From a virus (Duplodnaviria > Heunggongvirae > Uroviricota > Caudoviricetes), in the IMG/VR virus record IMGVR_UViG_2778261570_000007, positions 1 through 15,215 of that record: a stretch of DNA of 15,215 bases. One strand, written 5' to 3'. The notes under the pieces were generated by a model. The model had not been told where the DNA came from and made no database searches. It saw only the letters and a list, made by a program, of their open reading frames with translations. Each line of letters begins with the position of its first letter. Position 1 is the stretch's first letter. Position numbers and translations under genes: made by a program. This document shows positions 1-15,215 of this stretch, in pieces.

Positions 1-129
1 TTGAAAGCGCCTGTAACTGATGACATCAGCAGAGCGGTGGCTTTTGCCATTAAGTGGGTGGCTGTCGGTATCGCTGTGTCTCCGATTCTGTATGGGATGG
101 CAAAATTGATCATTGCTGTGAAATCGTAA
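1..129 (+). CDS. 3' end of an ORF entering from upstream of the window; hydrophobic C-terminal segment, function unknown
   Basis: Frame 1 is open from base 1 to TAA at 127-129 and translates to ...DDISRAVAFAIKWVAVGIAVSPILYGMAKLIIAVKS. The hydrophobic stretch suggests a membrane segment. No start codon is visible because the gene begins outside the window. Confidence 0.3.
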   Translation: MKAPVTDDISRAVAFAIKWVAVGIAVSPILYGMAKLIIAVKS

Positions 130-146
130 GTGGTGCGGGGGTAAAT

Positions 147-281
147 ATGCCAGATAGCATCATAAAACTAGCGAGGATTCTCTGTGTGGTTGTTGGCCTT
201 TCATTTTCAGTGATGCTGGTTGCCATTTTCATTGCTACTGCCTGGAGAGTCTTGAGCTTATCTGGATTGATTGGTGGATAG
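147..281 (+). CDS. Small single-pass membrane protein (44 aa), function unknown
   Basis: ATG at 147 is preceded by a G-rich SD-like stretch (ggtgcggggg). The product MPDSIIKLARILCVVVGLSFSVMLVAIFIATAWRVLSLSGLIGG contains one long hydrophobic helix. The tracked ORF 54..281 includes this; I prefer the internal start because of the RBS. Confidence 0.35.
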   Translation: MPDSIIKLARILCVVVGLSFSVMLVAIFIATAWRVLSLSGLIGG

Positions 282-286
282 CTGAC

Positions 287-469
287 ATGAGCCGAAAACA
301 CTGGACACACAGAGTGCCGCGAACGACGGCGAAATGGGCACTGGTAGCGATACTGGTGCCTTTTTTATTGGTGGGATGCGTCAGCCTGGATAAGGCGCGC
401 CAGCTTTTCGATACCGCTTCTCTGGTCTGTGAAATTGTCGACGGTGTTCGGCAGTGTCTGCAGAACTGA
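287..469 (+). CDS. Putative small lipoprotein (60 aa) with signal peptide and lipobox
   Basis: The product MSRKHWTHRVPRTTAKWALVAILVPFLLVGC... has a basic n-region, a hydrophobic h-region and an L-V-G-C lipobox. The mature part is about 29 aa with two further Cys. It starts 6 nt after the preceding small ORF. Confidence 0.45.
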   Translation: MSRKHWTHRVPRTTAKWALVAILVPFLLVGCVSLDKARQLFDTASLVCEIVDGVRQCLQN

Positions 470-640
470 TCGCCTGTAAGAGCAGAATATTTTGCTGAAA
501 AATGAAGGGTGCGCCAGCGTCCGGAAAGCATGAAATTCTGTGTTTGTGGCTACTCAATAAAATAAATTCTTTCTGTCGCCGCGAATACTCAAATGTTGAT
601 CAGTGCCCGGTGCGGCGACGGGCTTCGATATCAGGAGACG

Positions 641-940
641 ATGATGGAAAAAACAGAAAACAAACCGATTGTAATTGGTGCTGATGCTGCTCCGTTTAAG
701 TTTGAGTTGTCTCAACTGGTGGAGATGCGCATCAGTGATGAATGGGGTGAGGTTAAAGCCCGCGCGCAGTATGCGTATGGCGAAAACCAGTACCTGATCC
801 ACTACAAAGCAGCTGATGGTCGCGCCACGACGGAGTGGTTTGGTGAGTCAATGCTGGAAGCAACAGAAGATGATCGTCATCCTGGTTGTCCGGTATTTGC
901 TGGTATGAAATTGCCGGAAGGCGCGGTTGTTACTGAGTAA
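641..940 (+). CDS. Hypothetical soluble protein (about 99 aa) immediately upstream of cos
   Basis: Tandem ATG codons at 641 and 644 follow an aggag SD at 633-637. The ORF is in frame with tracked ORF 593..940. The product MMEKTENKPIVIGADAAPFKFELSQLVEMRISDEWGEVKARAQYAYGENQYLIHYKAADGR... is hydrophilic and I do not recognise it. Confidence 0.5.
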   Translation: MMEKTENKPIVIGADAAPFKFELSQLVEMRISDEWGEVKARAQYAYGENQYLIHYKAADGRATTEWFGESMLEATEDDRHPGCPVFAGMKLPEGAVVTE

Positions 941-1169
941 CGGGCATTACAGCAGCCCTTCTGTGTGAGGGGCTGCGATAATGCAACACAGGAATAAAAA
1001 TCGGCAGGGAAATCCGTTAAAGATATGCCGGTGGCGAAAGGATGCCAATGGCTCCTAACCTAACTCGATGTTTCGTTGAAAGCAATAAATCATGTTGCTG
1101 GAATGTGAATGAATGTTGTTTCCATGATGCGTGTCATGTTATGCGCATCCGATATGCAAACCATTCCTA

Positions 1170-1380
1170 TTTTCACGGGTCCTTTCCAGAACCTGAAATA
1201 CCGGGGGTCTGGGGACGCGCAAAAACGCGCTATTTATGAAAATTTTCAGGGAAAAAGCAGATCCGTTCTTCTTCTGGCTAACCTGTTGTTTAATAGAGTT
1301 TTCTTAAAAAAAAGAAAGGATCTGGCAGCGGTGATTTTTCGCTGAAAAAAGCGTTTTGAGATCCTTTCTTCTTTTTGTGA
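1170..1380. promoter_or_regulatory. cos: Lambda-type cohesive-end site (cosQ, cosN, cosB with R3, IHF site, R2, R1)
   Basis: cacgggtcctttcc (1174-1187) matches the lambda right-end sequence ACGGGTCCTTTCC. The cosN-like element gggtctggggac lies at about 1205-1216. It is followed by cgctatttatgaaaattttc (1228-1247), nearly identical to lambda positions about 25-45. ccgttcttcttc (1263-1274) is R3-like. aaagaaaggatct (about 1310-1322) and agatcctttcttc (about 1360-1372) are inverted R2/R1-like repeats. The Nu1 start follows at 1393, as in lambda. Confidence 0.75.
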
Positions 1381-1392
1381 GGAATATGTGCC

Positions 1393-1941
1393 GTGAAGGT
1401 TAACAAAAAGAAACTGGCGGAAATTTTTGAGTGCGATGTCAGAACAATCACTGGCTGGCAAAGTCAGGGGCTGAGAGTTTTGTCGGGGGGAGGCAAAGGT
1501 ATCGAAGCCATGTTCAATACTGCAGAAGCCATTGAGTGGTATGCGCAGCGGGAAAAAGATATCGAAAACGAAAAGCTCCGCAAAGAACTGGAAGATTTGC
1601 GTGCGACTGCAGAATCAGATTTACAACCCGGCACCATTGACTATGAACGCTACCGGTTAACCAAAGCACAGGCTGACGCACAGGAGCTGAAAAATGCCCG
1701 TGAAGAAGGGCTGGTGCTGGAAACGGAATTGTTTACCTTCATTCTGCAACGTGTGGCACAGGAGATTTCGGGGATACTTGTACGTGTGCCGCTGACATTA
1801 CAGCGTAAATATCCGGATATTTCACCGTCACACCTTGATGTGGTGAAAACTGAAATCGCGAAAGCCTCCAATGTTGCAGCTAAAGCCGGTGAAAACGTGG
1901 GCAGGTGGATTGATGATTTCAGACGCACAGAAGGCAGCTAA
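1393..1941 (+). CDS. nu1: Terminase small subunit (lambda Nu1 family)
   Basis: GTG start with gagga SD upstream. The N-terminus [70 protein letters not shown] closely parallels lambda Nu1 (MEVNKKQLADIF...GGGKG...ENEKLRREVEELR). It sits immediately downstream of cosB. Confidence 0.9.
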
Positions 1942-3829
1942 TGCAGCCGGTGCGATAGCTACAGGGCTTTTATCTCTCAATATTCCGGTTCCACTGACGA
2001 CAGTTCAGTGGGCTGATAAACATTATTATCTGCCGAAAGAATCTTCATATACCCCCGGACAATGGGAAACCCTGCCGTTTCAGGTTGCCATTATGAACAG
2101 CATGGGAAATGACCGGATCCGCACCGTTAATCTGATTAAATCGGCGCGCGTTGGTTACACCAAAATGCTGTTGGGGGTGGAGGCTTATTTTATTGAGCAT
2201 AAATCCCGTAACAGTCTGCTTTTTCAGCCAACAGATTCTGCTGCAGAAGATTTCATGAAATCTCATGTTGAGCCCACGATAAGGGATGTCCCTGCATTGC
2301 TGGAGCTGGCTCCATGGTTCGGAAGAAAGCACCGCGATAATACACTCACCCTGAAGCGTTTTTCCTCCGGTGTGGGTTTCTGGTGCCTTGGCGGCGCCGC
2401 TGCTAAAAACTACCGTGAAAAATCTGTGGATGTGGTCTGCTATGACGAACTCTCCTCGTTTGAACCGGATGTGGAAAAAGAAGGTTCGCCGACGCTGCTT
2501 GGCGATAAGCGTATCGAAGGCTCGGTATGGCCTAAATCCATACGTGGCTCAACGCCAAAAATTAAAGGCACCTGCCAGATTGAGAAAGCCGCAAATGAAT
2601 CAGCGCATTTCATGCGGTTTTATGTCCCTTGCCCTCATTGCGGGGAGGCCCAGTATCTGAAGTTTGGCGATGATGCGACGCCATTTGGCCTGAAATGGGA
2701 GAAGGGTAAACCGGAAACGGTGTATTACCTGTGTGAACATAATGGCTGTGTGATCCGGCAGTCGGAACTTGACCAGACCGACGGGCGCTGGATTTGTGAC
2801 AATACCGGGATGTGGACGCGCGACGGCCTGGCATTTTACAGCGCCGGCGATGAGGAGATGCCACCGCCGCGCTCCGTCACTTTCCACATCTGGACGGCGT
2901 ACAGTCCGTTCACCACCTGGGTACAGATTGTTTATGACTGGCTGGATGCGCTGAAGGATCCGAACGGTGTTAAGACGTTTATTAACACCACGCTCGGGGA
3001 GCCCTATGAAGAGGCCGTGGCAGAAAAACTGAGCTTTGAGTTGTTGCTGGAAAAAGTCTGCCACTATGGCGCGCAGGTTCCCCTGCGGGTGGTTTACCTG
3101 ACCGCAGGGATCGACTCCCAGAAAGATCGCTATGAAATTTATGTCTGGGGCTGGGCTCCCGGCGAAGAAGCCTTTCTGATTGATAAGCAAATTATCATGG
3201 GGCGACCGGAAGACGAGGACACCCTTAAACGTGTTGATACGGTGATCCGGAAAAAATATCGTCATGCTGACGGTACTGAAATTTCCATTTCCCGTGTCTG
3301 CTGGGATACCGGTGGTATCGACCAGGACATTGTGTATCAGCGTTCCAGGAAACACGGCACTTTTTTTGTGCTTCCCATAAAAGGGGCATCGGTGTACGGC
3401 AAGCCGGTGATCACCATGCCCAAAAAGCGCAACCAGCGTGGTGTGTTTTTGTGTGAGGTGGGCTCCGATACCGTCAAGGAAATGCTGTACGCCCGTTTTG
3501 CCCTGCCGGTGGTCTCTGCCAGTGAAGCCGCCCCGTATACCTTCCGTTTTCCGGATAACCCCGACATTTTTTCGGAAGAAGAGGCGCGTCAGATCGTGGC
3601 GGAAGAGCTGGTGGAGAAGGTGGTTAATGGCAGGGTGAAACTGCTGTGGGATAAAAAAGGGCGACGCAACGAAGCCCTCGACTGCCTGGTATATGCCTAT
3701 GCTGCCCTGCGTATTTCAGTTCAGCGGTGGCAGCTGGATCTTGAAGCACTGGCCCGTGCCAGAAGAGATGAGCAGGACGACGATGAGATGAGTCTGGAAG
3801 AAATCGCGGCTGCACTGAGTGGAGGATAA
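1913..3829 (+). CDS. A: Terminase large subunit (lambda gpA family; ATPase and endonuclease)
   Basis: Long colinear similarity to lambda gpA, for example [25 protein letters not shown], a P-loop-like [54 protein letters not shown] and [20 protein letters not shown] prefer the ATG at 1913 (aggtgg SD at 1903-1908; about 29-nt overlap with Nu1, similar to lambda) over the tracked 1871 start. Confidence 0.92.
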
Positions 3830-3832
3830 AGA

Positions 3833-4042
3833 ATGGTTTATACGCATGAAATGCTTTGTGATGCCCGACGGGCATTACATGAACTGATGATCGGACGTGC
3901 TGTGGTTTCCGTCAGCAAGGACGGGCGTCAGGTTCAGTATTCGCGGGCGACGATTGGTGAACTGCGTCAGTATATTGAAGAGCTGGAAAGTGCGCTGGGT
4001 GTATCCGGACGGCGTCGCGGCCCGGCAGGAGTGGGGCTGTGA
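3833..4042 (+). CDS. W: Head completion / DNA stabilisation protein (lambda gpW family)
   Basis: 69 aa with a ggagga SD. ARRALHELMIGRAVVSVSKDGRQVQYSRATIGELRQYIEELE...RRRGPAG parallels lambda W (AARAALHDLMTGKRV..QKDGRRV...YIAELE...RRRGPAG). Confidence 0.85.
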   Translation: MVYTHEMLCDARRALHELMIGRAVVSVSKDGRQVQYSRATIGELRQYIEELESALGVSGRRRGPAGVGL

Positions 4043-5610
4043 ACAGGGAACTGGTGGATCTTCACGGGCAGCCACTGCGGCAGAGTATGGGGTATTCCGG
4101 AGGGGGTACCGGATTTGGCGGGCAGCTTGCGGAATGGTTGCCTGCACCGGAAAGTGCCGACGTGGCGCTCTTACCTTCCATTCAGCTGGGTAACGCCCGT
4201 GCGGATGATCTGGTCCGTAACAACGGTATTGCCGCAAATGCAGTGGAAATTCATAAAGACCATATCGTCGGGCACATGTTTCGTCTGAGCTACCGGCCCA
4301 ACTGGCGCTGGCTGGGGATGTCGGAAGCTGATTCGCATGCCTTTATTGAAGATGTGGAGGCGGCGTGGATGGAATATTGCGATCCGGTGTTTGGTTCGAT
4401 GGATGTGGAAGGGCGTCGCTCGTTTACCGAATTTATTCGTGAAGGGGTGGGGGTCCATACGTTTAACGGTGAAATTTTTGTCCAGCCCGTATGGGATACG
4501 GAATCCACGTCATTATTCAGAACAAAATTCAAGACCATCAGTCCGAAGCGCGTCAGCACGCCCGGTTATGGTACCGGCGATCGTTTTATGCGTGCCGGAG
4601 TGGAAATCAACCGTTACGGAAAGGCGATGGCTTATCATGTTCAGGACGATGACTGGCCTGGTTACGGTGTCAGCAACTGGACACGGATTGCGGCGACGCT
4701 GCCCTCCGGGCGACCGGGAATGATCCATGTGTTTCAGCCGCAGGAGGACGGACAGACGCGCGGGGCCAACCAGTTTTATTCCGTGATGGAGCGCCTCAAG
4801 ATGCTCGACACACTGCAGGCCACGCAACTGCAGTCGGCGGTGGTGCGGGCGATGTATGCCGCGACGATTGAATCCACTCTGGATTCAGAAAAAGCATTTG
4901 AATATATCGCCGGGGTGGGAGATGGCGGTAAAAATCCCCTGAACACCATCATGAAAGGCTACGCGCGTTATTACGCCACCAATACGGTAAAGCTGGGCGG
5001 GGTCCGTATTCCGCATCTTTATCCGGGGGATTCACTGAATCTGCAGACAGCGCAGAATGCAGATAATGGTTTCTCTGAACTGGAAAAGGCGCTGTTACGT
5101 TACATTGCTGCCGGGCTGGGGGTGTCCTATGAACAGCTTTCCCGTGATTATTCACAGGTCAGTTATTCCAGTGCCAGGGCATCCGCCAATGAGTCGTGGC
5201 GGTATTTTATGGGCAAACGAAAATTTGTGGCCAGCCGACTGGCATCACAGATGTTTGCCTGCTGGCTGGAGGAAGCTCTTATTCGCGGTGTGATCCGCCC
5301 GCCGAAATCCCGTTTTTCATTCTGGGAGGCCCGTTCCGGATGGTGTCGTGCCGAGTGGATTGGTGCCGGTCGCATGGCGATTGATGGCCTTAAGGAAGTG
5401 CAGGAGGCGGTGATGCGTATTGAAGGTGGCCTGAGCACGTACGAGAAAGAGCTGGCCCTGATGGGCGATGACTATCAGGAGATTTTCCGCCAGCAACTGC
5501 GTGAAAGCCAGGAGCGACAGGCAGCGGGTCTTCCCCGCCCCATCTGGATAAAGGACACGTTTCAGCAGCAGATCCGACAGACAACGGGAGAAAATGGCGA
5601 TGCGTCGTAA
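4039..5610 (+). CDS. B: Portal protein (lambda gpB family)
   Basis: GTG start overlapping the W stop by 4 nt, as in lambda. Extensive similarity to lambda gpB, for example GNARADDLVRNNG, FNGEIFVQPVWDT, GQTRGANQFYSVMERLKMLDTLQATQLQSA, LRYIAAGLGVSYEQLSR and MAIDGLKEVQEAVMRIEGGLSTYEKE. Confidence 0.92.
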   Translation: MNRELVDLHGQPLRQSMGYSGGGTGFGGQLAEWLPAPESADVALLPSIQLGNARADDLVRNNGIAANAVEIHKDHIVGHMFRLSYRPNWRWLGMSEADSHAFIEDVEAAWMEYCDPVFGSMDVEGRRSFTEFIREGVGVHTFNGEIFVQPVWDTESTSLFRTKFKTISPKRVSTPGYGTGDRFMRAGVEINRYGKAMAYHVQDDDWPGYGVSNWTRIAATLPSGRPGMIHVFQPQEDGQTRGANQFYSVMERLKMLDTLQATQLQSAVVRAMYAATIESTLDSEKAFEYIAGVGDGGKNPLNTIMKGYARYYATNTVKLGGVRIPHLYPGDSLNLQTAQNADNGFSELEKALLRYIAAGLGVSYEQLSRDYSQVSYSSARASANESWRYFMGKRKFVASRLASQMFACWLEEALIRGVIRPPKSRFSFWEARSGWCRAEWIGAGRMAIDGLKEVQEAVMRIEGGLSTYEKELALMGDDYQEIFRQQLRESQERQAAGLPRPIWIKDTFQQQIRQTTGENGDAS

Positions 5611-7216
5611 TTTATCGCATATTGCCGCCATGGCATTTAATGAGCCGCTTTTACTGGAACCCGCCTATGCGCGGGTTTTCTTTTGCGCGCTGGGTAAAGA
5701 GATGGGAGCCGGCAGCCTTGCCGTTCCTCAGCAGGCTGTTCAGCTTGATGCTGATGGTATGCAACTGGCTGTGACTGACTATATGGCGGGCGGTCAGCGT
5801 CCGGCAAAGAGTTACCAGGTGAAGAATGGCATCGCCATTCTTCCGGTGAGCGGCACGCTGGTGCATAAACTGGGTACCCTGCGGCCTTACTCCGGCATGA
5901 CTGGCTATGACGGCCTGACGGCCCGCCTTCAGATGGCGGTGAATGATCCGGATGTGCGCGGCATTTTGCTGGATATCGACAGCCCGGGCGGTCAGGCTGC
6001 CGGGGCGTTTGACTGTGCTGACATGATTTACCGTCTGCGGGAACAGAAGCCCGTGTGGGCGCTGTGTAATGACATGGCCTGTTCAGCCGCCATGTTGCTG
6101 GCGGCAGCCTGTACCCGTCGGCTGGTCACGCAGACGGCAAAAATTGGTTCGATTGGCGTGATGATGGCGCACACCAGTTACGAGAAACAACTGGCACAGG
6201 AAGGGGTGGACATCACGCTGATTTACTCCGGGCAGCATAAGGTTGACGGCAACAGTATTCAGGCATTGCCGGCAGGTGTGCGTGCAGATTTTCAGCGCCG
6301 TATTGATGAGGCCCGCCGGATGTTTGTCGACAAGGTGGCGCTTTATACGGGGCTGAGTTCAGAGGCGGTGATGAATACCGAGGCTGCCGTTTATGACGGT
6401 CAGGCAGGCATTGATGCAGGCCTGGCTGATCAACTGATTAATGCTGCAGATGCCGTTGAAGTGATGGTTTCTGCACTGAATGACTCTGTTACGAAGGAGA
6501 ATACAATGACTGTTAAAAATCTCACCGTTGCTGAAGCGGTGGCCCAGGAAAATCAGCGCGTGATGGGGATCCTGAATTGTCAGGAGGCGAAAGGGCGCGA
6601 GCAACTGGCGCAAATGCTGGCAGGTCAGCCAGGAATGACGGTTGAGCAGGCGAAAACGTTGCTTGCAGCTGCGCCGGTTGCCGGTACTGACAGCACGGGC
6701 GATCAGATTATGGGGCTGCCGGAAGCAAAGGGGCGTGAGCAACTGGCACAGATGCTGGCAGGTCAGCCGGGGATGACGGTGGAGCAGGCGAAAGCGTTTC
6801 TGGCGGCAGCCCCTGCTGCTGGTGCTGCAGGCACAGGCGATCAGATTATGGCGTTACCGGAAGCAAAAGGGCGTGAACAACTCGCGCAGGCGCTGGCTGA
6901 ACAGCCGGGAATGACCGTTGACCAGGCCAAAACGTTACTGGCGGCGGCACCGGTTGCGGGTTCTGCAAGTGTCGGCGATCAGATTATGGCGCTGCCGGAG
7001 GCAAAAGGGCGCGAGCAACTTGCACAGGCACTGACAGAACAACCGGGAATGACGGTGGCGCAGGCGAAAACGCTGCTGGCAGCCGCGCCGGCGGCATCGC
7101 AACCGTCACAGGAAACACTTTTTGATCGCTTTATGGCACAGCATGCTGCCAGTGCGGTTTCCGGTGGCGGAACTGCCGGGCGCGGGGAGGAAGACCTGCT
7201 GATGAGTATGCCGTAA
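5594..7216 (+). CDS. C: Capsid maturation protease (S49/ClpP-like, lambda gpC family) with an expanded C-terminal scaffold domain
   Basis: Overlaps B by 17 nt. The N-terminus HIAAMAFNEPLLLEPAYARVFFCAL matches lambda C (HIASMAFNEPLMLEPAYARVFFCAL). Protease-core motifs include PYSGMTGY, ILLDIDSPGG, VWALCNDMACSAA and RRLVTQTAKIGSIGVMMAH. At 540 aa it is about 100 aa longer than lambda C because of internal tandem repeats. Confidence 0.9.
   Translation: MAMRRNLSHIAAMAFNEPLLLEPAYARVFFCALGKEMGAGSLAVPQQAVQLDADGMQLAVTDYMAGGQRPAKSYQVKNGIAILPVSGTLVHKLGTLRPYSGMTGYDGLTARLQMAVNDPDVRGILLDIDSPGGQAAGAFDCADMIYRLREQKPVWALCNDMACSAAMLLAAACTRRLVTQTAKIGSIGVMMAHTSYEKQLAQEGVDITLIYSGQHKVDGNSIQALPAGVRADFQRRIDEARRMFVDKVALYTGLSSEAVMNTEAAVYDGQAGIDAGLADQLINAADAVEVMVSALNDSVTKENTMTVKNLTVAEAVAQENQRVMGILNCQEAKGREQLAQMLAGQPGMTVEQAKTLLAAAPVAGTDSTGDQIMGLPEAKGREQLAQMLAGQPGMTVEQAKAFLAAAPAAGAAGTGDQIMALPEAKGREQLAQALAEQPGMTVDQAKTLLAAAPVAGSASVGDQIMALPEAKGREQLAQALTEQPGMTVAQAKTLLAAAPAASQPSQETLFDRFMAQHAASAVSGGGTAGRGEEDLLMSMP
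6506..7216 (+). CDS. nu3: Putative Nu3-like scaffolding protein from an internal in-frame start within C
   Basis: A strong SD aaggaga (6494-6500) precedes an in-frame ATG at 6506 (MTVKNLTVAEAVAQENQRVMGILNC...). In lambda, Nu3 is nested in-frame in the 3' part of C. Internal initiation here is inferred, not demonstrated. Confidence 0.5.
   Translation: MTVKNLTVAEAVAQENQRVMGILNCQEAKGREQLAQMLAGQPGMTVEQAKTLLAAAPVAGTDSTGDQIMGLPEAKGREQLAQMLAGQPGMTVEQAKAFLAAAPAAGAAGTGDQIMALPEAKGREQLAQALAEQPGMTVDQAKTLLAAAPVAGSASVGDQIMALPEAKGREQLAQALTEQPGMTVAQAKTLLAAAPAASQPSQETLFDRFMAQHAASAVSGGGTAGRGEEDLLMSMP
6584..7135 (+). repeat. In-frame tandem repeat, four copies of 138 bp (46 aa), inside the C/Nu3 coding region
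   Basis: Unit starts at 6584, 6722, 6860 and 6998 (period exactly 138 nt). Each encodes about EAKGREQLAQMLAGQPGMTVEQAKTLLAAAPVAG-x6-GDQIMALP. Copies differ by point substitutions and the last copy diverges at its 3' end. Confidence 0.85.
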
Positions 7217-7254
7217 GCGATATCCGGAATTCAGATAAATCAGGAGGCTGAAAA

Positions 7255-7590
7255 ATGATTAAAACCACCACGGAAAAGCGTGCAGATGTGCGCATTTTTG
7301 CCGGAAGCGATCCGGCGCATACCGCAACAGCCACCAGTGGTATCAGTGCTGCCACACCTGCACTGACGCCACTGATGGTGGATGACGCCACCGGAAAACT
7401 GGTTGTCTGGGATGGTCAGAAAGCCGGAACGGCTGTGGGTGTGCTGGCTCTGGCGCTTGCCGGGACCGAGCCCATGCTGACGTACTACAAAAGCGGTACG
7501 TTTGCCACTGAGTCGCTGGTCTGGCCTGGTTCGGTGGATGCGGTGAAAAAAGCCAACGCATTTGTGGGAAGTGCCATCAGCCACGCCTGA
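7255..7590 (+). CDS. D: Head decoration protein (lambda gpD family)
   Basis: 111 aa with a caggagg SD. [38 protein letters not shown]...[15 protein letters not shown]...AFVGSAIS parallels lambda gpD ([27 protein letters not shown]...KLVAWDG...FYKSGTF...AFAGTAIS). Confidence 0.9.
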   Translation: [111 protein letters not shown]

Positions 7591-7612
7591 TGGTGAAGTG
7601 ATTAACTGAAAA

Positions 7613-7642
7613 AACGGGTCGCGATGCGGCCCGTTTGTGTTT
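7613..7642 (+). terminator. Stem-loop with U-rich tail between D and E (candidate partial terminator or mRNA-stabilising hairpin)
   Basis: aacgggtcgc (7613-7622), loop gat, gcggcccgtt (7626-7635): a 10-bp stem including one G-U pair, followed by tgtgttt. It lies 18-47 nt upstream of the E start. Confidence 0.4.
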
Positions 7643-7659
7643 CTGAAGGAAAATAAATT

Positions 7660-8688
7660 ATGGGGTTATTTACCACGCGTCAGTTACTCGGGTACACCGA
7701 GCAGAAAGTGAAATTTCGTGCGCTGTTTCTGGAGCTGTTCTTTCGTCGCACGATCACTTTCCATACTCAGGAAGTCATGCTGGATAAAATTACCGGCAAA
7801 ACACCGGTTGCAGCGTATGTGTCTCCGGTGGTGTCAGGCAAAGTGCTGCGCAGCCGTGGTGGTGAAACCCGTGTGTTACGTCCCGGTTATGTAAAACCAA
7901 AACACCGCTTTGATTATCAGCAGGCAGTGGAACGTCTTCCGGGAGAAGATCCGGCCCGCCTTAATGACCCGGCTTACCGCCGTCTGCGTATTCTGACGGA
8001 CAACCTGAAACAGGAAGAGCAGGCGATTGTGCAGGTGGAAGAAATGCAGGCAGTCAGTGCTGTTCTGCAGGGTAAATACACTATGAGCGGCGAGCAGTTT
8101 GAGACGGTGGAAGTGGATTTTGGGCGTTCTGCCGCCAATAACATTACGCAGGCTGGCGGACGCGAATGGTCAAAGCAGAATGCTGACACCTTTGATCCGA
8201 CGCATGATCTTGATGCGTACTGCGATTTTGCTTCCGGTACCATCAATATCGCGATTATGGACGGCACGGTCTGGCGTATGCTGAACGGTTTTAAACTGTT
8301 CCGTGAAAAACTGGATACCCGCCGTGGCTCCAAATCTGAGCTGGAAACCGCACTGAAAGACCTGGGGTCCGTGGTTTCCTTTAAGGGCTGGTACGGCGAT
8401 CTGGCTGTCGTGGTGGCGAAGACAACGTATGTTGACGAAAACGGGGATGAACAGCGTTATCTGCCGGAAGGCACACTGATTCTGGGAAATACCCAGGCGG
8501 AAGGCGTCCGTTGCTATGGCGCAATCCAGGATAATCAGGCGCTGAGTGAAGGGATCACCTCTGCGATTCGTTATCCGAAACACTGGGAGGAAGTGGGGGA
8601 TCCTGGTTGCGAATATACCATGACGCAGTCTGCGCCGTTGATGGTGCTGCCGGATCCGGATGCGTTTGTGGTGGTTCAGGTGAAATAA
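7660..8688 (+). CDS. E: Major capsid protein (lambda gpE family)
   Basis: 342 aa (lambda E is 341). Extensive colinear similarity: YVSPVVSGKVLRSRGG, PGYVKPKH, EDPARLNDPAYRRLRI, AIVQVEEMQAVSAVLQGKYTMSGEQF, NNITQAGGREWSK, KLDTRRGSKSELETALKDLG, LGNTQAEG and TMTQSAPLMVLPDPDAFVVVQ. Confidence 0.93.
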   Translation: MGLFTTRQLLGYTEQKVKFRALFLELFFRRTITFHTQEVMLDKITGKTPVAAYVSPVVSGKVLRSRGGETRVLRPGYVKPKHRFDYQQAVERLPGEDPARLNDPAYRRLRILTDNLKQEEQAIVQVEEMQAVSAVLQGKYTMSGEQFETVEVDFGRSAANNITQAGGREWSKQNADTFDPTHDLDAYCDFASGTINIAIMDGTVWRMLNGFKLFREKLDTRRGSKSELETALKDLGSVVSFKGWYGDLAVVVAKTTYVDENGDEQRYLPEGTLILGNTQAEGVRCYGAIQDNQALSEGITSAIRYPKHWEEVGDPGCEYTMTQSAPLMVLPDPDAFVVVQVK

Positions 8689-8693
8689 GACAG

Positions 8694-8719
8694 GGCGGGA
8701 TATTCCCGCCTTTTTCTTT
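8694..8719 (+). terminator. Rho-independent terminator-like hairpin immediately after E
   Basis: ggcggga (8694-8700), loop tat, tcccgcc (8704-8710): a perfect 7-bp GC-rich stem followed by tttttcttt (8711-8719). Confidence 0.7.
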
Positions 8720-8738
8720 AGCGCACGGGAGAGATGTG

Positions 8739-9104
8739 ATGACAAAAGAGCAGATGACTAAACGTTTGCAGGAACTGGCAGTGATTCTGGGGCGTGAAGC
8801 AGATATTTCAGGTTCAAAAGCCGATCTTGAGCAGCGTCTGGCGGAATGGGAGGAGGAGGCCGCTGGATTCGATGGGGAGGAGACGGGGAAGGAAGAGGTG
8901 GGCAACGATGCATCCGGCGACGGAATGCATTCTGAGCAGGGACTCGCCCGGGTGCGTATGCTGAAAACGGCGCATATGCCAGCCTGTGATGCTGTGACGG
9001 GAAAAATGTTGATGTTTGCCCGGGCCTCCAGTGTTGTGCTGGTTAATGAAGCCGCAGTTCCTGCGTTGCTGGCAGACGGTCTGGCAGAAAAAATCCGGGA
9101 GTGA
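8739..9104 (+). CDS. FI: DNA packaging / head assembly protein (lambda gpFI family)
   Basis: ATG at 8739 with a gggagag SD, in frame with tracked ORF 8607..9104. The N-terminus MTKEQMTKRLQELAVILGREADISGSKADLEQRLAEWEEE resembles lambda FI (MTKDELIARLRSLGEQL...GTKEEL..RVAELKEE). The middle is acidic and the C-terminal domain hydrophobic, as in FI. Confidence 0.75.
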   Translation: MTKEQMTKRLQELAVILGREADISGSKADLEQRLAEWEEEAAGFDGEETGKEEVGNDASGDGMHSEQGLARVRMLKTAHMPACDAVTGKMLMFARASSVVLVNEAAVPALLADGLAEKIRE

Positions 9105-9508
9105 TGATGTTCGATAATCTGTTCGATCAGGCCATGAGTGATGCGGATGACATCATCCTGGATACGATGGGGACGGAAATCAGCATATATCCGGGCGGCA
9201 CGGAAAGAAAAATCCGTGCCGTTTTTGATGCCCCGGCAGATAACACCGGGATGAACACTGGCAGCGGCGAAATTCGTGATACTGCGCCCGTGTTATTTAC
9301 CCGGAGCGCATGGGCCGCCGGTCTGAAAAAATATGACAGGGTCATGATCCACGGCGAACCCTATCAGGTAGTCGATCCCGGCTGGGATGAGTCAGGCGCT
9401 GCGGGTCAGGGGGTGATTACCATCACCCTTGCGCGTGGAGAGCCCGGGAGAAATACACCTGCTGCACCGGAACGACCGAGTAAACGTTATGGCAGTCAGA
9501 GAGCATGA
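9104..9508 (+). CDS. FII: Head-tail connector protein (lambda gpFII family)
   Basis: MMFDNLFDQAMSDADDIILDTMGTEISI...AVFDAP...PVLFTRS...GLKKYDRVMIHGE parallels lambda FII (MADFDNLFDAAIARADETIRGYMGTSATI...GVFDDP...PSLFVRTDE...LRRGDTLTIGEE). The start overlaps the FI stop. The exact start (GTG 9101, ATG 9104 or ATG 9107) is uncertain. Confidence 0.8.
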   Translation: MMFDNLFDQAMSDADDIILDTMGTEISIYPGGTERKIRAVFDAPADNTGMNTGSGEIRDTAPVLFTRSAWAAGLKKYDRVMIHGEPYQVVDPGWDESGAAGQGVITITLARGEPGRNTPAAPERPSKRYGSQRA

Positions 9509-10211
9509 ACGAAGCAGTGCCCGGCAGCGACGGCTGGCACGAAACCTCGTTGTCGATATTGATGAAGATGAGGTGCTGAAAATTATCGCTAAACTGGGTG
9601 GGTCAAAAAGTCAGATCCGTAAAGCCTGGGGCGTGGCGCTGAAAAGAGCCGCGTCTGCACTGCGGATGAAGGCTATGGCAGAGTTTAAAAAACAGGTTGC
9701 CCCACGCAGTCAGAAAATGATCAAAAAGCGTGTTCTGCATAATTTTATCATTCGTCGTAACGGTGATGAGTTTGATGAGGCGAAGGTATGGTTCGGTCTG
9801 AACGCCATCAAAGTACGCGATCTGCGCGGACGCATCAGTGGGGGACGACGCGGCGAACGCCATCAGTTGCGCGATGAGCGGGGGCGTTTTGCACCAGCTT
9901 CCAGCCGCAGGAAGGCTCGGGAGATCAGTTTTAAACCTGCCGGGGAATCCCTGCCTGTCACCGCCTGGTCAACGGATGATGCCTTTATCAACCAGTTCGA
10001 AGCGGAAAATCGTAACGGACGTATATCAAAAAGGAAAACGATACTGATCCGACAGGCATCCGGACGACGGAGGGTGCGTGAAGCGGAAATTGATATTTAT
10101 GAAGCCATGCTGAACCGTATAGAGGATTTTGTTTTTCCGGATGCGGAAGCACTGATCCTGAAAAATTTTGAGCATGAACTGAAATTCCGGGTATTTAAGG
10201 GGCTGGAGTGA
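9489..10211 (+). CDS. Putative tail-completion protein, possibly lambda gpZ-like (basic, about 240-260 aa)
   Basis: Sits where lambda has Z (after FII, before U). Highly basic composition with Z-like segments (KRAASALRMKAMAEFKKQV...; AKVWFGLNAIKVRDLRG versus lambda Z ARIKVNRGDLPVIKLGN). The similarity is weak and from memory. The start is uncertain (tracked ATG 9429 overlaps FII by 80 nt; the in-frame ATG at 9489 has a poor SD). Confidence 0.4.
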   Translation: MAVREHERSSARQRRLARNLVVDIDEDEVLKIIAKLGGSKSQIRKAWGVALKRAASALRMKAMAEFKKQVAPRSQKMIKKRVLHNFIIRRNGDEFDEAKVWFGLNAIKVRDLRGRISGGRRGERHQLRDERGRFAPASSRRKAREISFKPAGESLPVTAWSTDDAFINQFEAENRNGRISKRKTILIRQASGRRRVREAEIDIYEAMLNRIEDFVFPDAEALILKNFEHELKFRVFKGLE

Positions 10212-10774
10212 TGGAGCCATTGATGATGGGAGCCTGGCATCAGGCGGTGATTGACAGTCTGAAACAAATTCCCTGGGTGGAAGATGCCGATGAGTACCCG
10301 GAAAAAGTGACGCAACTGGTGACGCCTGCCGTGTTTGTGGATGTGCCCGGCTGGGACAAGGCTCAGTTTGCCGACGGGCAGACGCGGGTCACGCTGAAAT
10401 GCGATCTGTTTGTGGTGACTGACCGGGCCGGGAAGACGGAGAACGTGCCAAAACCGCAGATATTTGCCCGCTGTCTGGCAATGGATTTATCTGACTGGAT
10501 TGATGGAGCCACGTTCGGGCTGGATAACGTTTACCCGGCTGTTTTTATCGATGCTGAGGTGGATACCTTCGACCGGCTGCTGGACGACTACATCGTTTTC
10601 CGTGTCTCTTTCGAACAGGACATTCCGGTCGGCGAAGATCCGTTTGCAGTTCAGGCAGGTGCGCCGTTACAGGAAGTCTGGCTGGGTAAAGTACCGGAAA
10701 CCGGTAAAAAGCATGTGCAGGATTATCGTCTTATCTGGAAAGCGGAGGGCACCGGCGATGAGTCTGGCGGATGA
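10211..10774 (+). CDS. Putative tail terminator / tail-completion protein, possibly lambda gpU-like, with a C-terminal extension
   Basis: Lies after the Z-like gene, where lambda has U. AVIDSLKQ...PAVFVDVPG...TRVTLKCDLFVV loosely parallels lambda U (AAVLDALEK...PAVAVYLTG...ELHIEVFL). The start overlaps the upstream stop (GTG 10208 / ATG 10211). At 187 aa it is longer than lambda U (131 aa). Confidence 0.45.
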   Translation: MEPLMMGAWHQAVIDSLKQIPWVEDADEYPEKVTQLVTPAVFVDVPGWDKAQFADGQTRVTLKCDLFVVTDRAGKTENVPKPQIFARCLAMDLSDWIDGATFGLDNVYPAVFIDAEVDTFDRLLDDYIVFRVSFEQDIPVGEDPFAVQAGAPLQEVWLGKVPETGKKHVQDYRLIWKAEGTGDESGG

Positions 10775-11381
10775 AGTGGCTGAGTTACGCCGCAGGGTGG
10801 CGGACATGGTCCGTCGCGGCGTGGTGGAAGTGGTGATCCCGGGTAGCCCGGTGATGGTCCGGGTGGATATCGGAGATGTGCTTTCGCCGCCGTTGCCCTG
10901 GATTCAGGTGCAGTCCGGGCGTTACATGCAGGTCAGTAATTACCCGGCACCAGGAGATGCGGTCACGGTGATATCGGAGGCAGGTGATCTGCGTAATGGT
11001 CGGGTGTATCCGGGGGCCAACATTGACGCGATTCCGGTACCGGCGGGCAGTGAACACGAGCATGTTATTTTGTTTGATACCGGAACGGAGATCCGTTACG
11101 ACCGCAAGGCTAATGCCCTGTCCATCACGCTGGCTGAAGGCGGCAGCTATAAAATCACCGGCAGGGGAATGCTTGACGGTCCGGTGGAAATCACGGATAC
11201 CCTGACTGTGCAGGGAAAAACGAAGATTAATGCCGATACGCAGGTTCTGGGCAATATCGGTGCCTCACAGGAGATCACCGACAAAACCGGTAGCATGAGT
11301 AAAATTCGCGAAATTTATAATACTCATGATCACCCTGGCGACAGCGGGGGAACCACCCGTAAACCTAACCAGGAAATGTGA
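10758..11381 (+). CDS. V: Baseplate assembly / spike protein (P2 gpV family)
   Basis: ATG at 10758 with a ggaggg SD, overlapping the upstream stop by 17 nt. The N-terminus MSLADEVAELRRRVADMVRRGVV parallels P2 V (NIQELARALRNMIRTGII). The C-terminal NTHDHPGDSGGTT matches the P2 V motif HTHKHPGDSGGTT. The tracked ORF 10464..11381 contains this frame. Confidence 0.85.
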   Translation: MSLADEVAELRRRVADMVRRGVVEVVIPGSPVMVRVDIGDVLSPPLPWIQVQSGRYMQVSNYPAPGDAVTVISEAGDLRNGRVYPGANIDAIPVPAGSEHEHVILFDTGTEIRYDRKANALSITLAEGGSYKITGRGMLDGPVEITDTLTVQGKTKINADTQVLGNIGASQEITDKTGSMSKIREIYNTHDHPGDSGGTTRKPNQEM

Positions 11382-11402
11382 ACGCCGCACCGGCGTTTTT
11401 TT
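11382..11402 (+). terminator. Terminator-like hairpin with T-run between V and W (candidate attenuator)
   Basis: acgccg (11382-11387), loop cac, cggcgt (11391-11396), followed by a 7-T run (11396-11402). The next gene starts at 11415 without an obvious SD. Confidence 0.4.
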
Positions 11403-11414
11403 CGGAAAAATTTC

Positions 11415-11771
11415 ATGATTGGTATTGATTCCGCCACTGGCAGATATCTGCACGGTAACGAACATCTGCGTCAGTCCGTCACCGATATTTTATCAACACC
11501 GGTCGGCAGCCGGGTACTTCTCAGGGAATACGGCAGCAGGTTGTTCAGTCTGCTTGATAACCCGCAGGATGATTTTACGCGGGTGAGGATTGTCCGTGAA
11601 ACGGCAACCGCCCTTGAACGCTGGGAGCCCCGCCTGACCCTCCGGCGGGTGGAGGTGACGTGGACAGGAGAAGGAAGCGCCTGGCTGACGCTTGTCGGGG
11701 TGAACAACGAAACACAGGAAACGATTCGACTCGAGGAGATAAAAATTGGCAGCATCTCAGGCCATTATTGA
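11415..11771 (+). CDS. W: Baseplate wedge protein (P2 gpW / T4 gp25-like family)
   Basis: 118 aa. SVTDILSTPVGSRVLLREYGSRLFSLLDNPQ...ALERWEPRLTL parallels P2 W (SIGDILRTPVGSRVMRRDYGSLLASMIDQPQ...KWEPRVTL). Confidence 0.85.
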   Translation: MIGIDSATGRYLHGNEHLRQSVTDILSTPVGSRVLLREYGSRLFSLLDNPQDDFTRVRIVRETATALERWEPRLTLRRVEVTWTGEGSAWLTLVGVNNETQETIRLEEIKIGSISGHY

Positions 11772-12660
11772 TCTGTCCGCGATACCTGTACCGGATGCGG
11801 TGGAGGTGCCGGACACCGCTGTACTGGTCACTCAGATAGTGGCGAAATATCAGGAACTGGACACGTTGTTTTCGGCCCTGGTGGAATCTGATCCCGCGTA
11901 TAAATGGGCAGAGGCGCTGGCTTTTCGGGTGGCGCTGATGCGCCAGCAGATAAATGATGCTGTCCGTGCTGTACTGCTTGCCAGTGCCGGTGGGAGCGAT
12001 CTGGATCAGGTTGGCGCGAATTATCAGGTTCAGCGGCTGGTCATTACCCCGGCAGACGACAGCACCATTCCGCCCACGCCGGCGGTGTATGAACATGATG
12101 ACGCTTTTCGCGAACGTATCCAGTTGTCGTGGGCACGGCTCAGCACCGCCGGCGCGAAAAATGCGTATCACTATTTTGCACAAAGTGCTGATCCTGATGT
12201 GCTGGATGTGAAGGCTTACGGGCCGGAAACGCATTCGCAGGAAGGTCGGGTTTTTCTTTATGTGTTATCCCGCTCCGGAAATGGCACTGCACCACAACCC
12301 CTGCTGGATAAGGTGGCAGCATCAGTCAGTGATGATGAAACCCGTCCCCTGACGGATTTTGTCAGTGTCCGGACGGCAGAAATTATTCCCTACGATGTGG
12401 TGGCGGATATTCATATTCCCTACGGACTGGATGGTGAACTGGTTATGTCAAATGCCCGCAAGGCGCTGCAGTCATACACTGACAGCGTCCACCGGATTGG
12501 CTCGGTGGCATCCCGTTCCGGCATGGATGGTGCCCTTCACCAGACCGGGGTGATTACGGTGAATCTGACCTCTCCGGGCAGTGATATCGTTCCTGCGATG
12601 GGGCAGGCACCGTGGTGCCGTAAGGTAACGCTGAATAAGGTGGAGACAACTGATGAATGA
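11746..12660 (+). CDS. J: Baseplate assembly protein (P2 gpJ family)
   Basis: TTG start at 11746 preceded by a gaggag SD (11733-11738). IIDLSAIPVPDAV, LDQVGANYQVQRLVITPADDSTIPPTPAV and a C-terminal ...TTDE parallel P2 J (IIDLNQLPAPDVV, LDVIGANYNTTRLTITPADDSTIPPTPAV, ...GGSDE). Confidence 0.88.
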   Translation: MAASQAIIDLSAIPVPDAVEVPDTAVLVTQIVAKYQELDTLFSALVESDPAYKWAEALAFRVALMRQQINDAVRAVLLASAGGSDLDQVGANYQVQRLVITPADDSTIPPTPAVYEHDDAFRERIQLSWARLSTAGAKNAYHYFAQSADPDVLDVKAYGPETHSQEGRVFLYVLSRSGNGTAPQPLLDKVAASVSDDETRPLTDFVSVRTAEIIPYDVVADIHIPYGLDGELVMSNARKALQSYTDSVHRIGSVASRSGMDGALHQTGVITVNLTSPGSDIVPAMGQAPWCRKVTLNKVETTDE

Positions 12661-13243
12661 CGATATCAGGAGCATACTGCCGGTCAGTGCCAGCCGGGCA
12701 GAGCGGGTGGTGGACTGTGTCTCCGGAGATATGCTGTCAGACATAGCGGTCTGCCTGATCCGCTATGTGAAAAATCCCGATTTATGCCCTGCTGAATTGC
12801 TGCCATGGCTGGCCTGGGAAATGGCGGTGGATACCTGGAATGAACACTGGACGGAGACGGAAAAAAGGTCTGCGATAAAACGTGCTGCTTACATCCACCG
12901 ACACAGAGGGACTAAAGCGGCGCTGATGGCATCGCTGGCTGACAGTCCCTTCCGGTCGCAGATTGTTGAGTGGTATGAGCAGACCCCGCCCGGGGAGCCG
13001 TATACCTTTCGTCTGAACGTGGAACAGAAGGATTTACCGGTGCTGATGAATGATCATCAGGATCTTAAGCATGCGGTGCTCCGTGCCAAAAATCTGCGCA
13101 GCTGGTTCAGTATTCACGTTTACGGGAACAGCACAGGGCGTGGATTTGGTTACGGCTATGTGATGGCGACAGAAAAAATCAGAAGTACTGGTGTGACAAC
13201 AAAGACAGTGCCCACAGGCGGGCAGAGTGAGGCAGGTGTATGA
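12653..13243 (+). CDS. I: Baseplate / tail protein (P2 gpI family)
   Basis: NPDLCPAELLPWLAWEMAVDTWNEHWTETEKRSAIKRAAYIHRHRGTKAAL...EWYEQTPPGEPYTFRL parallels P2 I (NPDTCPANLLPWLAWAFSVDRWDEKWPEATKRAVIRDAYFIHCHKGTIGAV...EWWENSDPPGTFRL). Overlaps J by 8 nt. Confidence 0.85.
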   Translation: MNDDIRSILPVSASRAERVVDCVSGDMLSDIAVCLIRYVKNPDLCPAELLPWLAWEMAVDTWNEHWTETEKRSAIKRAAYIHRHRGTKAALMASLADSPFRSQIVEWYEQTPPGEPYTFRLNVEQKDLPVLMNDHQDLKHAVLRAKNLRSWFSIHVYGNSTGRGFGYGYVMATEKIRSTGVTTKTVPTGGQSEAGV

Positions 13244-14499: not shown

Positions 14500-14501
14500 C
14501 A

Positions 14502-15044
14502 ATGTTGCATTTAAAAAATATTACTGCAGGCAATCCGAAAACCGCAGAACAATATCAGATGACAAAACAACATGGTATCACCTGGCTTTTTTCGGAAGAT
14601 GACAAAAACTGGTATGAAGAACAGAAGAACTTTGCCAGTGACACCATAAAAATGGTTTACACCGGAGACGGGCGCGTGGTGTGGGTCGGTAAGGATGTGA
14701 CAGGCATTGAACCCCGTAACGCCAGTGTTATTGAAGTTCCTGATATTACCGCTAATCGCCGTATTACCGTGCCTGGTTACTGGTTTTACCGCAACGATAA
14801 ATTTGTCTTCGACTACAAACTAAAAGCGGAAGATGAGCGCGATGCTCTGTTAAAACAGGTCAGCATCATGACCAGCGAATGGGAAAAAGACCTGCTGCTG
14901 GGATTAATCAGTGACGAAGACAGGGGGAAGCTGAAAGCGTACCGCATTTACGCGAAATCGCTGCAGGCGATGGATTTCAGCGCTATTACGGATAAGCCCA
15001 CTTACAACAATATTAGCTGGCCTGAACAGCCACAAAATACCTGA
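14502..15044 (+). CDS. G: Tail fibre assembly chaperone (P2 gpG / Tfa family)
   Basis: MLHLKNITAGNPKTAEQYQMTK...WLFSEDDKNWYEEQKNFASDTIKMVY...VIEVPDITANRR parallels P2 G ([22 protein letters not shown]...[26 protein letters not shown]...VVEVPDITSNRR). Starts 3 nt after the H stop. Confidence 0.88.
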   Translation: MLHLKNITAGNPKTAEQYQMTKQHGITWLFSEDDKNWYEEQKNFASDTIKMVYTGDGRVVWVGKDVTGIEPRNASVIEVPDITANRRITVPGYWFYRNDKFVFDYKLKAEDERDALLKQVSIMTSEWEKDLLLGLISDEDRGKLKAYRIYAKSLQAMDFSAITDKPTYNNISWPEQPQNT

Positions 15045-15063
15045 AAAAGAAGTTAATCATCTG

Positions 15064-15086
15064 ACCGCCTGAGGGCGGTTTTTTTA
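15064..15086 (+). terminator. Rho-independent terminator after the tail fibre assembly gene
   Basis: accgcc (15064-15069), loop tgag, ggcggt (15074-15079), followed by a 7-T run (15079-15085), about 20 nt after the G stop. Confidence 0.7.
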
Positions 15087-15098
15087 TGGGAGAAATGT

Positions 15099-15164
15099 AT
15101 GTCCGGATTACATGGTGTTGAAACCATTGAACTGACGACAGGCACGGTTGCCGTGCAGACGTAA
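15099..15164 (+). pseudogene. Tail sheath-like N-terminal fragment (21 codons then TAA)
   Basis: ATG at 15099 with a gggag SD (15088-15092). MSGLHGVETIELTTGTVAVQT* resembles the N-terminus of the P2 FI sheath (MSDYHHGVQVLEINEGTRVISTV...) but ends at TAA 15162-15164. The remaining 51 nt in any frame do not look like sheath sequence. Confidence 0.35.
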
Positions 15165-15215
15165 GCGGCTCGTCAGAACCGTATTGATATTTACTGAGAG
15201 CTCAGATCAACTTTC

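Follow-up and report, generated by a model that had tools for sequence, protein, structure and literature searches.

Of the steps of phage lysis, disruption of the outer membrane is understood least. Once holin and endolysin have acted, it is performed in some phages by spanins of the Rz/Rz1 type, and 91 of 677 genomes of phages with Gram-negative hosts encode no recognisable spanin (Kongari et al. 2018, BMC Bioinformatics 19:326; PMC6139136), a share given as about 15% elsewhere (bioRxiv 10.1101/515445). The same catalogue, according to which periplasmic cysteines are near-universal in spanins, lists PhiP27 as carrying a 'separated' two-component spanin that is a singleton for both subunits, with the outer-membrane subunit (o-spanin) at 20706-20861 and a 64-amino-acid (aa) open reading frame (ORF) at 20348-20542 as the inner-membrane subunit (i-spanin); this assignment was computational (PMC6139136). 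Here, we analyse a homologue of that o-spanin, the 60-aa prolipoprotein Lpp60, which is encoded near the start of a 15,215-nt stretch of prophage DNA (IMG/VR virus record IMGVR_UViG_2778261570_000007, positions 1 to 15,215; hereafter the window). The reading that we favour, at roughly even likelihood and as judged from sequence and gene context, is that Lpp60 is expressed late, resides in the outer membrane as a lipoprotein and accomplishes the outer-membrane step of lysis with no phage-encoded inner-membrane subunit. The family itself was known, as a singleton o-spanin in a computational catalogue; what this analysis adds is its wide occurrence, its consistent lack of a partner and its structural difference from known o-spanins. 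The gene and its parts are located as follows.

287-469, plus strand: Lpp60, 60-aa prolipoprotein (from the ORF listing; full-length match to phrog_7528, E=3.8e-36; dN/dS 0.22-0.40)
287-376, plus strand: signal peptide of Lpp60, residues 1-30
365-379, plus strand: lipobox LLVGC (L27-L28-V29-G30-C31)
377-379, plus strand: Cys31, predicted to be lipid-modified
377-466, plus strand: 30-aa mature peptide
428-430, plus strand: Cys48
455-457, plus strand: Cys57

Lpp60 is a genuine gene. It is under purifying selection (pairwise dN/dS 0.22-0.40), including the mature part that lies outside an RNA hairpin described below, and the ORF is intact at 60 codons in 48 of 53 distinct sequences, with three of the other five only reading through the stop by at least one codon. 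A 98-aa antisense ORF at 235-531 shares third codon positions with Lpp60, so that dN/dS cannot discriminate between the two; the antisense frame was therefore checked directly, and stop codons interrupt it in 52 of 57 distinct homologous sequences, which rules it out as a real gene and leaves the sense ORF as the gene. Translation starts at ATG287 and not at GTG314 as called by PGAP, because codons 3-9 vary only synonymously and codon 10, which is Thr, Ile or Gln in many homologues, is often no start codon at all. Existing annotation of the gene is inconsistent: PGAP uses the GTG314 start (51 aa; 6314..6469 of locus L003), the phiP27 record has another frame (L32; 4952..5107 of locus L001), and the gene is unannotated in the records of pPE4 (L006) and GER2 (L093).

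Of 5426 complete E. coli genomes, 317 carry Lpp60, with up to 7 copies per genome, and homologues occur in prophages of E. coli, Salmonella, Citrobacter, Cronobacter, Yersinia and Lelliottia as well as in Stx2e and Stx2k phages. The family is nonetheless small in sequence space (23 cluster representatives at 50% identity among 1.84 billion proteins), and the matching phrog_7528 is annotated as 'unknown function'. Scans of Pfam, NCBIfam and PADLOC with Lpp60, its upstream neighbours ORF44 and ORF60 and a 98-aa protein encoded downstream returned nothing usable; Lpp60 matched no Pfam or NCBIfam family at E<=1, and a profile search of PDB sequences gave spurious helical matches only. The first-pass annotation of this DNA had described a 44-aa single-helix ORF followed 6 nt later by a 60-aa lipoprotein with an LLVGC lipobox that is not proline-rich. 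Both ORFs are confirmed, at 147-281 and 287-469, with a spacer of 5 nt (282-286) that places the second start 6 nt past the last base of ORF44. The lack of conservation that it named as grounds for doubting these ORFs was not encountered: both are conserved, have PHROG matches and are under purifying selection.

The protein has the layout of an exported lipoprotein, with a basic n-region (residues 1-17), a hydrophobic core (about residues 18-30) and Cys31 followed by Val-Ser, and it presumably conforms to the PROSITE PS51257 lipobox rule; a PS51257-like pattern was applied by script only to the phiP27 homologue. Val instead of Asp at position +2 predicts sorting of Lpp60 to the outer membrane, and Lpp60 shares with o-spanins both a lipobox cysteine without Asp at +2 and, from its sequence, periplasmic cysteines for intermolecular disulfides (C-x8-C). 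Alignments show the lipobox, Cys31 and Cys48 to be invariant across the family and Cys57 to be nearly so, which gives the family motif C-x16-C-x8-C. The mature peptide, CVSLDKARQLFDTASLVCEIVDGVRQCLQN, has 30 residues and 0 prolines, in line with the first description. Its net charge is -1 in the window copy and -4 to +3 across the family, and its hydrophobic moment is 0.45-0.63 across the family, with hydrophobic residues in a heptad-like pattern. AlphaFold models Lpp60 as a single long helix (pLDDT 71), on which Cys48 and Cys57 would lie on roughly opposite faces; intermolecular disulfides thus seem more likely than internal ones. The n-region follows the pattern PR[RTK]xxK, and the RR of a twin-arginine export signal occurs in some subfamilies only. 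Some subfamily members end in Arg-Lys (DRK, ERK, VSK).

Lpp60 comes fourth in a phage lysis cassette composed of holin(s), endolysin and Lpp60. We compared 92 Lpp60 loci from phage records, species-representative genomes, IMG/VR and metagenome contigs; the scan of the genome collection gave 3 loci only, and the diversity was drawn from the IMG/VR and metagenome look-ups. Wherever a locus extends far enough upstream, an endolysin gene (Peptidase_M15_4 or GH108) is found 5' of Lpp60, which thus has the cassette position expected of an o-spanin. The distance is short: Lpp60 starts 17 nt past the stop codon of the M15 endolysin in 45 loci, and in Lelliottia and a Mu-like phage the two genes overlap at the endolysin stop. 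Lpp60 has the orientation of the cassette and lies 5-17 nt from the preceding gene or overlaps it, and no promoter-like plus-strand site was found upstream of it within the window. The surroundings of this endolysin-Lpp60 arrangement vary widely and include three holin types (holin_8 plus holin_3_7; holin_3_1; an unrelated 117-aa holin), four packaging types (lambda-type, phiP27-type, pPE4-type and Mu-type) and different virion backgrounds, i.e., the phiP27 myovirus, the window prophage with its lambda-type head and P2-type tail, and the Mu-like phage. Given these varied backgrounds, Lpp60 travels with the endolysin and not with virion or receptor-binding modules. One of the loci, from Actinobacillus phage vB_Apl-pPE4 (L006), has 97% nucleotide identity to E. 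coli prophage DNA across Lpp60 and carries E. coli-type holins, which makes the Actinobacillus host look doubtful.

The window itself begins inside the late region of a prophage, with a truncated ORF that ends at 129, and its upstream context was examined in an E. coli E41 prophage that is 99.9% identical to it. There, Lpp60 is preceded, in this order, by Phage_holin_8 (130 aa), Phage_holin_3_7 (92 aa), a GH108/PG_binding_3 endolysin, ORF60 and ORF44, and the lysis region carries no Rz/Rz1 annotation. The first-pass annotation had placed the two small ORFs at the end of a lysis cassette and upstream of cos, and had proposed to look for holin, endolysin and spanin genes in the upstream genome. 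This placement holds, as both holins and the endolysin are found directly upstream in the E41 prophage, no Rz/Rz1 is annotated there, and the Nu1-type small terminase gene starts downstream at 1393, beyond a segment (1228-1247) that we take to be the phage lambda cos-proximal sequence.

No inner-membrane partner accompanies Lpp60. Searches by tblastn with the Rz of PhiR12_3 gave no match in any of the 92 loci. A scan for i-spanins took every possible start and looked for ORFs that combine a single N-terminal transmembrane helix with a hydrophilic tail of 45 aa or more. It revealed no conserved candidate, whether embedded, overlapping or adjacent, around Lpp60 in the 92 loci or elsewhere in the phiP27 genome as a whole; its yield was limited to other reading frames of known genes, toxin B subunits and starts internal to terminase genes. 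Lpp60 also belongs to no described o-spanin family such as Pfam Rz1, phrog_7528 being its only match. The o-spanin listed for phiP27 (20706-20861) is a 51-aa internal-start version of the Lpp60 homologue, the 30-aa mature domain of which is predicted to be 83% helical. The listed i-spanin (4670..4864 of locus L001) has a TTG start, runs antisense to a 90-aa ORF and is borne on DNA that is found in only 2 of the 92 loci, and the window copy has no such ORF. For these reasons the i-spanin call fails for the family, and phiP27 ORF 20348-20542 is probably not a gene.

Other candidate partners were rejected. ORF60 and its 57-aa relatives (ORF60/57) do not qualify as an i-spanin of reversed topology, as their N-terminal 25-35 residues are net positive, there is essentially no C-terminal tail and nothing would be periplasmic; moreover, over half of the Lpp60 loci lack them. 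Cys55 in the periplasmic loop of holin_3_7 was ruled out as a disulfide partner, since a Salmonella cassette with Lpp60 has no cysteine there. We found no literature on the function of the phiP27 lysis genes or on a link between bacteriocin release proteins (BRP) and spanins.

Lpp60 occupies the slot that is held by spanins in related cassettes. Distant relatives of the two-holin cassette carry genuine two-component spanins directly 3' of the endolysin, namely a 91-aa i-spanin and an o-spanin of about 50 aa in mEp390 and HK639, a membrane protein and an annotated o-spanin in Klebsiella phage Seifer, an Rz-like spanin in Salmonella phage 118970_sal3, and Rz with an embedded proline-rich Rz1 in Salmonella phage F1055. 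In F1055 (locus L108, 2896-3200), about 300 bp comprising the 5' end of the i-spanin gene and the 3' end of the endolysin gene are duplicated, and a truncated 68-aa copy precedes the full Rz/Rz1. The exchange in the window can be located to the following region.

273-294, plus strand: junction between ORF44 and Lpp60, a mosaic breakpoint (from the sequence and megablast boundaries)

A Shine-Dalgarno-like GGTGGA lies at 273-278 within the last codons of ORF44, followed by the 5-nt spacer, and the first codons, ATGAGCCG, are common to the window Lpp60 and to the Rz of Stx phages. Megablast similarity to Stx-type phages extends from 2 to 294, and similarity of the phiP27 type begins at 283-287; Lpp60 hence replaces Rz/Rz1 at the start codon. 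Escherichia phage GER2 (locus L093, 3488-3681) has a frameshifted Lpp60 remnant downstream of an intact S-R-Rz cassette. In Rac-SA53 (locus L090, 3416-4556), which has the same holins and endolysin, the slot is filled by LT-IIa enterotoxin genes, and neither Lpp60 nor a spanin is present.

The signal-peptide codons of Lpp60 hold a further conserved element.

336-371, plus strand: terminator-like RNA element (11-bp stem at 336-361 with a GCGA loop, then TTTTTATTGG)

The hairpin has a folding energy of -17.9 kcal/mol (z=-4.24), and its nucleotides simultaneously encode ALVAILVPFLL. All copies from E. coli, Salmonella, Citrobacter and Lelliottia retain it, with most of their stem substitutions compatible with pairing, and so do two more distant lineages in which amino acids have changed; in another lineage the stem is present but the U-tract is not, and the Mu-like lineage has the protein but lacks the hairpin. 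In comparison with the Lelliottia copy (dS 1.35), 10 of 11 codons for conserved residues are identical at the nucleotide level in the hairpin stretch versus 5 of 20 elsewhere (Fisher p=0.0006). Covariation is weak: 95.5% of the cells are paired, yet 21 of 500 shuffles reach the observed score. The element may be an intrinsic terminator that is read through only by Q-modified polymerase. As the hairpin is encoded in the same codons, any argument from signal-peptide conservation at the protein level is confounded.

It is tempting to outline how Lpp60 could act. It would be transcribed along with the late lysis genes, exported, lipidated at Cys31, freed of its signal peptide and sorted to the inner leaflet of the outer membrane. 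In this position it would display a proline-free amphipathic helix of 30 residues with two conserved cysteines, probably in the form of disulfide-linked oligomers, and after holin and endolysin action it would break the outer membrane, as Rz/Rz1-type spanins do elsewhere, with no inner-membrane subunit from the phage. Loss of the cell wall would be the most likely trigger, upon which turgor would press the inner onto the outer membrane and the helix would perturb or fuse the bilayers. Because the peptide is too short for an intact periplasm, contact with the inner membrane would be possible only after the peptidoglycan spacer is gone. A function in outer-membrane disruption is suggested by the real spanins in the same slot of related two-holin cassettes, by the frameshift of the Lpp60 copy in Rz-bearing GER2, by the independent selection of the phiP27 homologue as an o-spanin, and by the match between the conserved cysteines and the near-universal periplasmic cysteines of spanins (PMC6139136).

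Several points weigh against such a function. With a length of about 4.5 nm, a 30-residue helix is too short to span the periplasm, the peptide is close to neutral and not cationic like the phiKT disruptin, and the AlphaFold model is of moderate confidence and silent on oligomers. No sequence similarity of Lpp60 to known o-spanin, unimolecular spanin (u-spanin) or disruptin families was found, and Rz1 alone is inactive in lambda. Moreover, Lpp60 is not indispensable to every such prophage, because Rac-SA53 does without Lpp60 or a spanin. A more tentative proposal, which we regard as possible but on balance rather unlikely, is that Lpp60 represents a third class of phage outer-membrane disruptor, a lipid-anchored mini-peptide that is the product of a single gene and needs no inner-membrane partner. 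In the boldest version of this proposal, unprocessed precursor in the inner membrane and mature lipopeptide in the outer membrane would be joined via the cysteine-bearing helix after wall degradation, and the hairpin would gate Lpp60 and the downstream virion genes to Q-antiterminated transcription.

Lpp60 could alternatively be an accessory or regulatory lysis factor that influences timing or the action of endolysin or holin, or that loosens the tethers between outer membrane and wall, while these phages pass the outer membrane by another route or need no dedicated factor. The constant place of Lpp60 in the lysis cassette is compatible with this explanation, small extra lysis factors such as Lcc6 of LambdaSo (65 aa) are known, in Rac-SA53 the same holins and endolysin occur while Lpp60 and spanin are both missing, and the Arg-Lys C-termini of some subfamily members resemble the Arg-Lys ending of Braun's lipoprotein. 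Nevertheless, we consider an accessory role unlikely. A specific protein partner is improbable because Lpp60 is combined with two unrelated endolysin families and three holin types, the conserved cysteine in the holin periplasmic loop is not kept in the Salmonella cassette bearing Lpp60, and the slot of Lpp60 is the spanin slot in related cassettes. The suggestion of a lysis accessory in the first-pass annotation thus identified the right neighbourhood, i.e., the lysis cassette, while the role that we favour is the outer-membrane step itself. Another small lipoprotein with a part in cell lysis is the colicin lysis protein, whose lipopeptide, with or without a stable signal peptide, activates outer-membrane phospholipase A (OmpLA) and leaves a leaky envelope without membrane fusion. 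Lpp60 is alike in size and layout to these proteins (45-52-aa precursors, mature peptides of about 28-33 aa, LLVGC-type lipobox), and its signal peptide is more conserved than its mature part, which parallels the functional stable signal peptide of the pCloDF13 BRP. That Lpp60 acts in this way is improbable, however, as it does not match Pfam Lysis_col and as hhalign against the colicin lysis profile aligned 16 signal-peptide columns only, with a probability of 22.6% and no mature part. The extra conservation of the signal-peptide codons is at least partly explicable by the RNA hairpin, and what precedes the gene is an endolysin in a phage late operon and not a colicin gene.

A small, predicted outer-membrane lipoprotein that is encoded between lysis genes and cos and is common in E. 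coli prophages also calls to mind morons and exclusion lipoproteins of the Bor/Cor/Llp type, and as such it would either benefit the lysogen or mask receptors against loss of progeny on debris; lambda carries bor between its lysis genes and cos. We nevertheless find this explanation quite doubtful. Lpp60 is tightly packed behind and co-oriented with the preceding gene and lacks a promoter-like site, it has no Pfam match, including Bor, and no PADLOC match, and instead of linkage to a tail or receptor module it shows linkage to the endolysin across unrelated virion modules. Receptor-specific masking is implausible because Lpp60 follows the endolysin across the prophage with lambda-type head and P2-like tail, the phiP27 myovirus and the Mu-like phage. 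The same pattern argues against surface exclusion, another role considered in the first reading of this DNA, as Lpp60 accompanies the endolysin across siphovirus, myovirus and Mu-like virion modules and not the tail fibres. Nor did a toxin-like pair, likewise raised there, find support: no promoter of its own and no Rfam or PADLOC match were found, and the gene is co-oriented and tightly packed in the cassette. Lastly, the RNA hairpin or terminator might be the actual conserved element and the Lpp60 ORF incidental or decaying, given that hairpin and U-tract are conserved across genera and synonymous change is suppressed there. This is very hard to reconcile with purifying selection over the whole ORF, the invariant lipobox and cysteines, the 60-codon length intact in 48 of 53 sequences, and a Mu-like lineage that keeps the protein without the hairpin.

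The genes immediately upstream of Lpp60 have a history of their own.

147-281, plus strand: ORF44, 44-aa membrane protein with one hydrophobic stretch at residues 11-32 (ATG start, TAG stop; phrog_4906 match, E=3.4e-19)
1-129, plus strand: 3' end (42 codons) of ORF60 (phrog_1115 match, E=5.8e-26, unknown function; dN/dS about 0.28-0.46)

The phrog_4906 family is also annotated as 'unknown function', and pairwise dN/dS of ORF44 is 0.07-0.52. In the E41 prophage (5947..6129 of locus L003), ORF60 has its full length of 60 aa with a C-terminal transmembrane helix and is the first of the two small 'pre-spanin' membrane genes. Homologues of ORF44 with 49-72% identity, mostly unannotated, are found in about 276 phage records, almost all from Stx-converting phages, and lie directly before Rz in BP-4795, P14437, PhiR5_1 and PhiR12_3. 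In Stx-type phages, homologues of both ORF60 and ORF44 are located between R and Rz, with the order ORF60, ORF44, Rz in PhiR12_3. ORF60 homologues (57-60 aa) precede Lpp60 in about 30 loci and ORF44 occurs with Lpp60 in about 12 of the 92, and about 45 loci have neither ORF44 nor ORF57/60. The view of ORF44 and Lpp60 as a pair is not borne out by this distribution, in which ORF44 stands far more often before Rz. Judged by sequence and position, ORF44 and ORF60 look like small inner-membrane proteins that move as a module of their own and are placed before the gene for outer-membrane disruption, and they are probably accessory lysis factors and not Lpp60-specific partners. A precedent is Lcc6 of the Shewanella phage LambdaSo, a 65-aa membrane protein that is required for lysis at the holin step (bioRxiv 10.1101/2024.01.23.576932). 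Like ORF44 and ORF60, it is a small single-helix membrane protein, and it serves as an additional lysis factor next to holin, endolysin and spanin; no sequence relationship is claimed. Unlike the cassette-borne ORF44 and ORF60, it is encoded elsewhere in its genome.

Downstream of Lpp60, at 644-940 on the plus strand, a 98-aa soluble protein is encoded that matches phrog_1935 (E=1.2e-59), has no Pfam or NCBIfam match and lies 3' of Lpp60 in about 35 loci. A 78-aa 'hypothetical protein' is called by PGAP at 1109-1345 (plus strand) in the identical E41 prophage; this ORF is probably spurious because it overlaps the presumed lambda cos-proximal match. The Nu1-type small terminase gene (1393..1941) is followed by a lambda-A-type large terminase, and from there up to 15215 the packaging and head genes are of the lambda type (Nu1, A, W, portal, S49 protease, D, E, FI), combined with a contractile tail of the P2 type that comprises baseplate V/W/J/I, tail fibre and sheath. 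Several prophages carry toxin genes, pertussis-like S1/S2S3 or Stx2, directly 5' of the same type of lysis cassette (locus L104, 1331-2537; locus L005, 1-611).

The Lpp60 family offers a widespread candidate disruptor that is genetically tractable in E. coli. Should a lipopeptide of 30 residues suffice, it would be a minimal model of how the outer membrane is breached after wall degradation. If Lpp60 indeed performs the outer-membrane step, this would correct spanin catalogues and those annotation pipelines that miss, mis-start or mis-frame the gene, and it would provide a possible lead toward outer-membrane-active peptides. If Lpp60 is only accessory, these phages are still without a known spanin.

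Among the known systems, the disruptin gp28 of phiKT resembles Lpp60 in being a short amphipathic peptide in place of a spanin, but it is cationic and without a lipid anchor (bioRxiv 10.1101/515445); Lpp60 is predicted to be lipid-anchored, and although amphipathic it is not strongly cationic, with a net charge of -1 in the window copy and -4 to +3 in the family. The unimolecular spanin gp11 of T1 is likewise the product of a single gene in the lysis cassette and starts with a lipoprotein signal. It is, however, anchored in the inner membrane by a C-terminal transmembrane helix, whereas Lpp60 has one hydrophobic segment, at about residues 13-30, and ends hydrophilic (...CLQN). With the colicin lysis proteins, Lpp60 shares the very small prolipoprotein, the LLVGC-type lipobox, a mature lipopeptide within their range of about 28-33 aa (30 aa) and synthesis in doomed cells. 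It differs from them by its place in a phage late operon instead of a colicin operon, by its predicted helical mature part with C-x8-C, and by the absence of a match to PF02402 (Lysis_col) or of similarity in the mature peptide; the ColE1-type sequence used for comparison matches the plasmid annotation 'colicin release lysis protein'. Compared to Rz1 and other two-component spanins, Lpp60 lacks an i-spanin and sequence similarity, is predicted to be helical, and has 30 mature residues with 0 prolines, while mature Rz1 has 10 prolines. It is nevertheless to lambda Rz1 and the two-component spanins that Lpp60 corresponds in being a predicted outer-membrane lipoprotein encoded 3' of the endolysin in a late cassette, in its conserved periplasmic cysteines and in the slot that it fills, with a start codon in the window at the very position of that of Rz in Stx phages.

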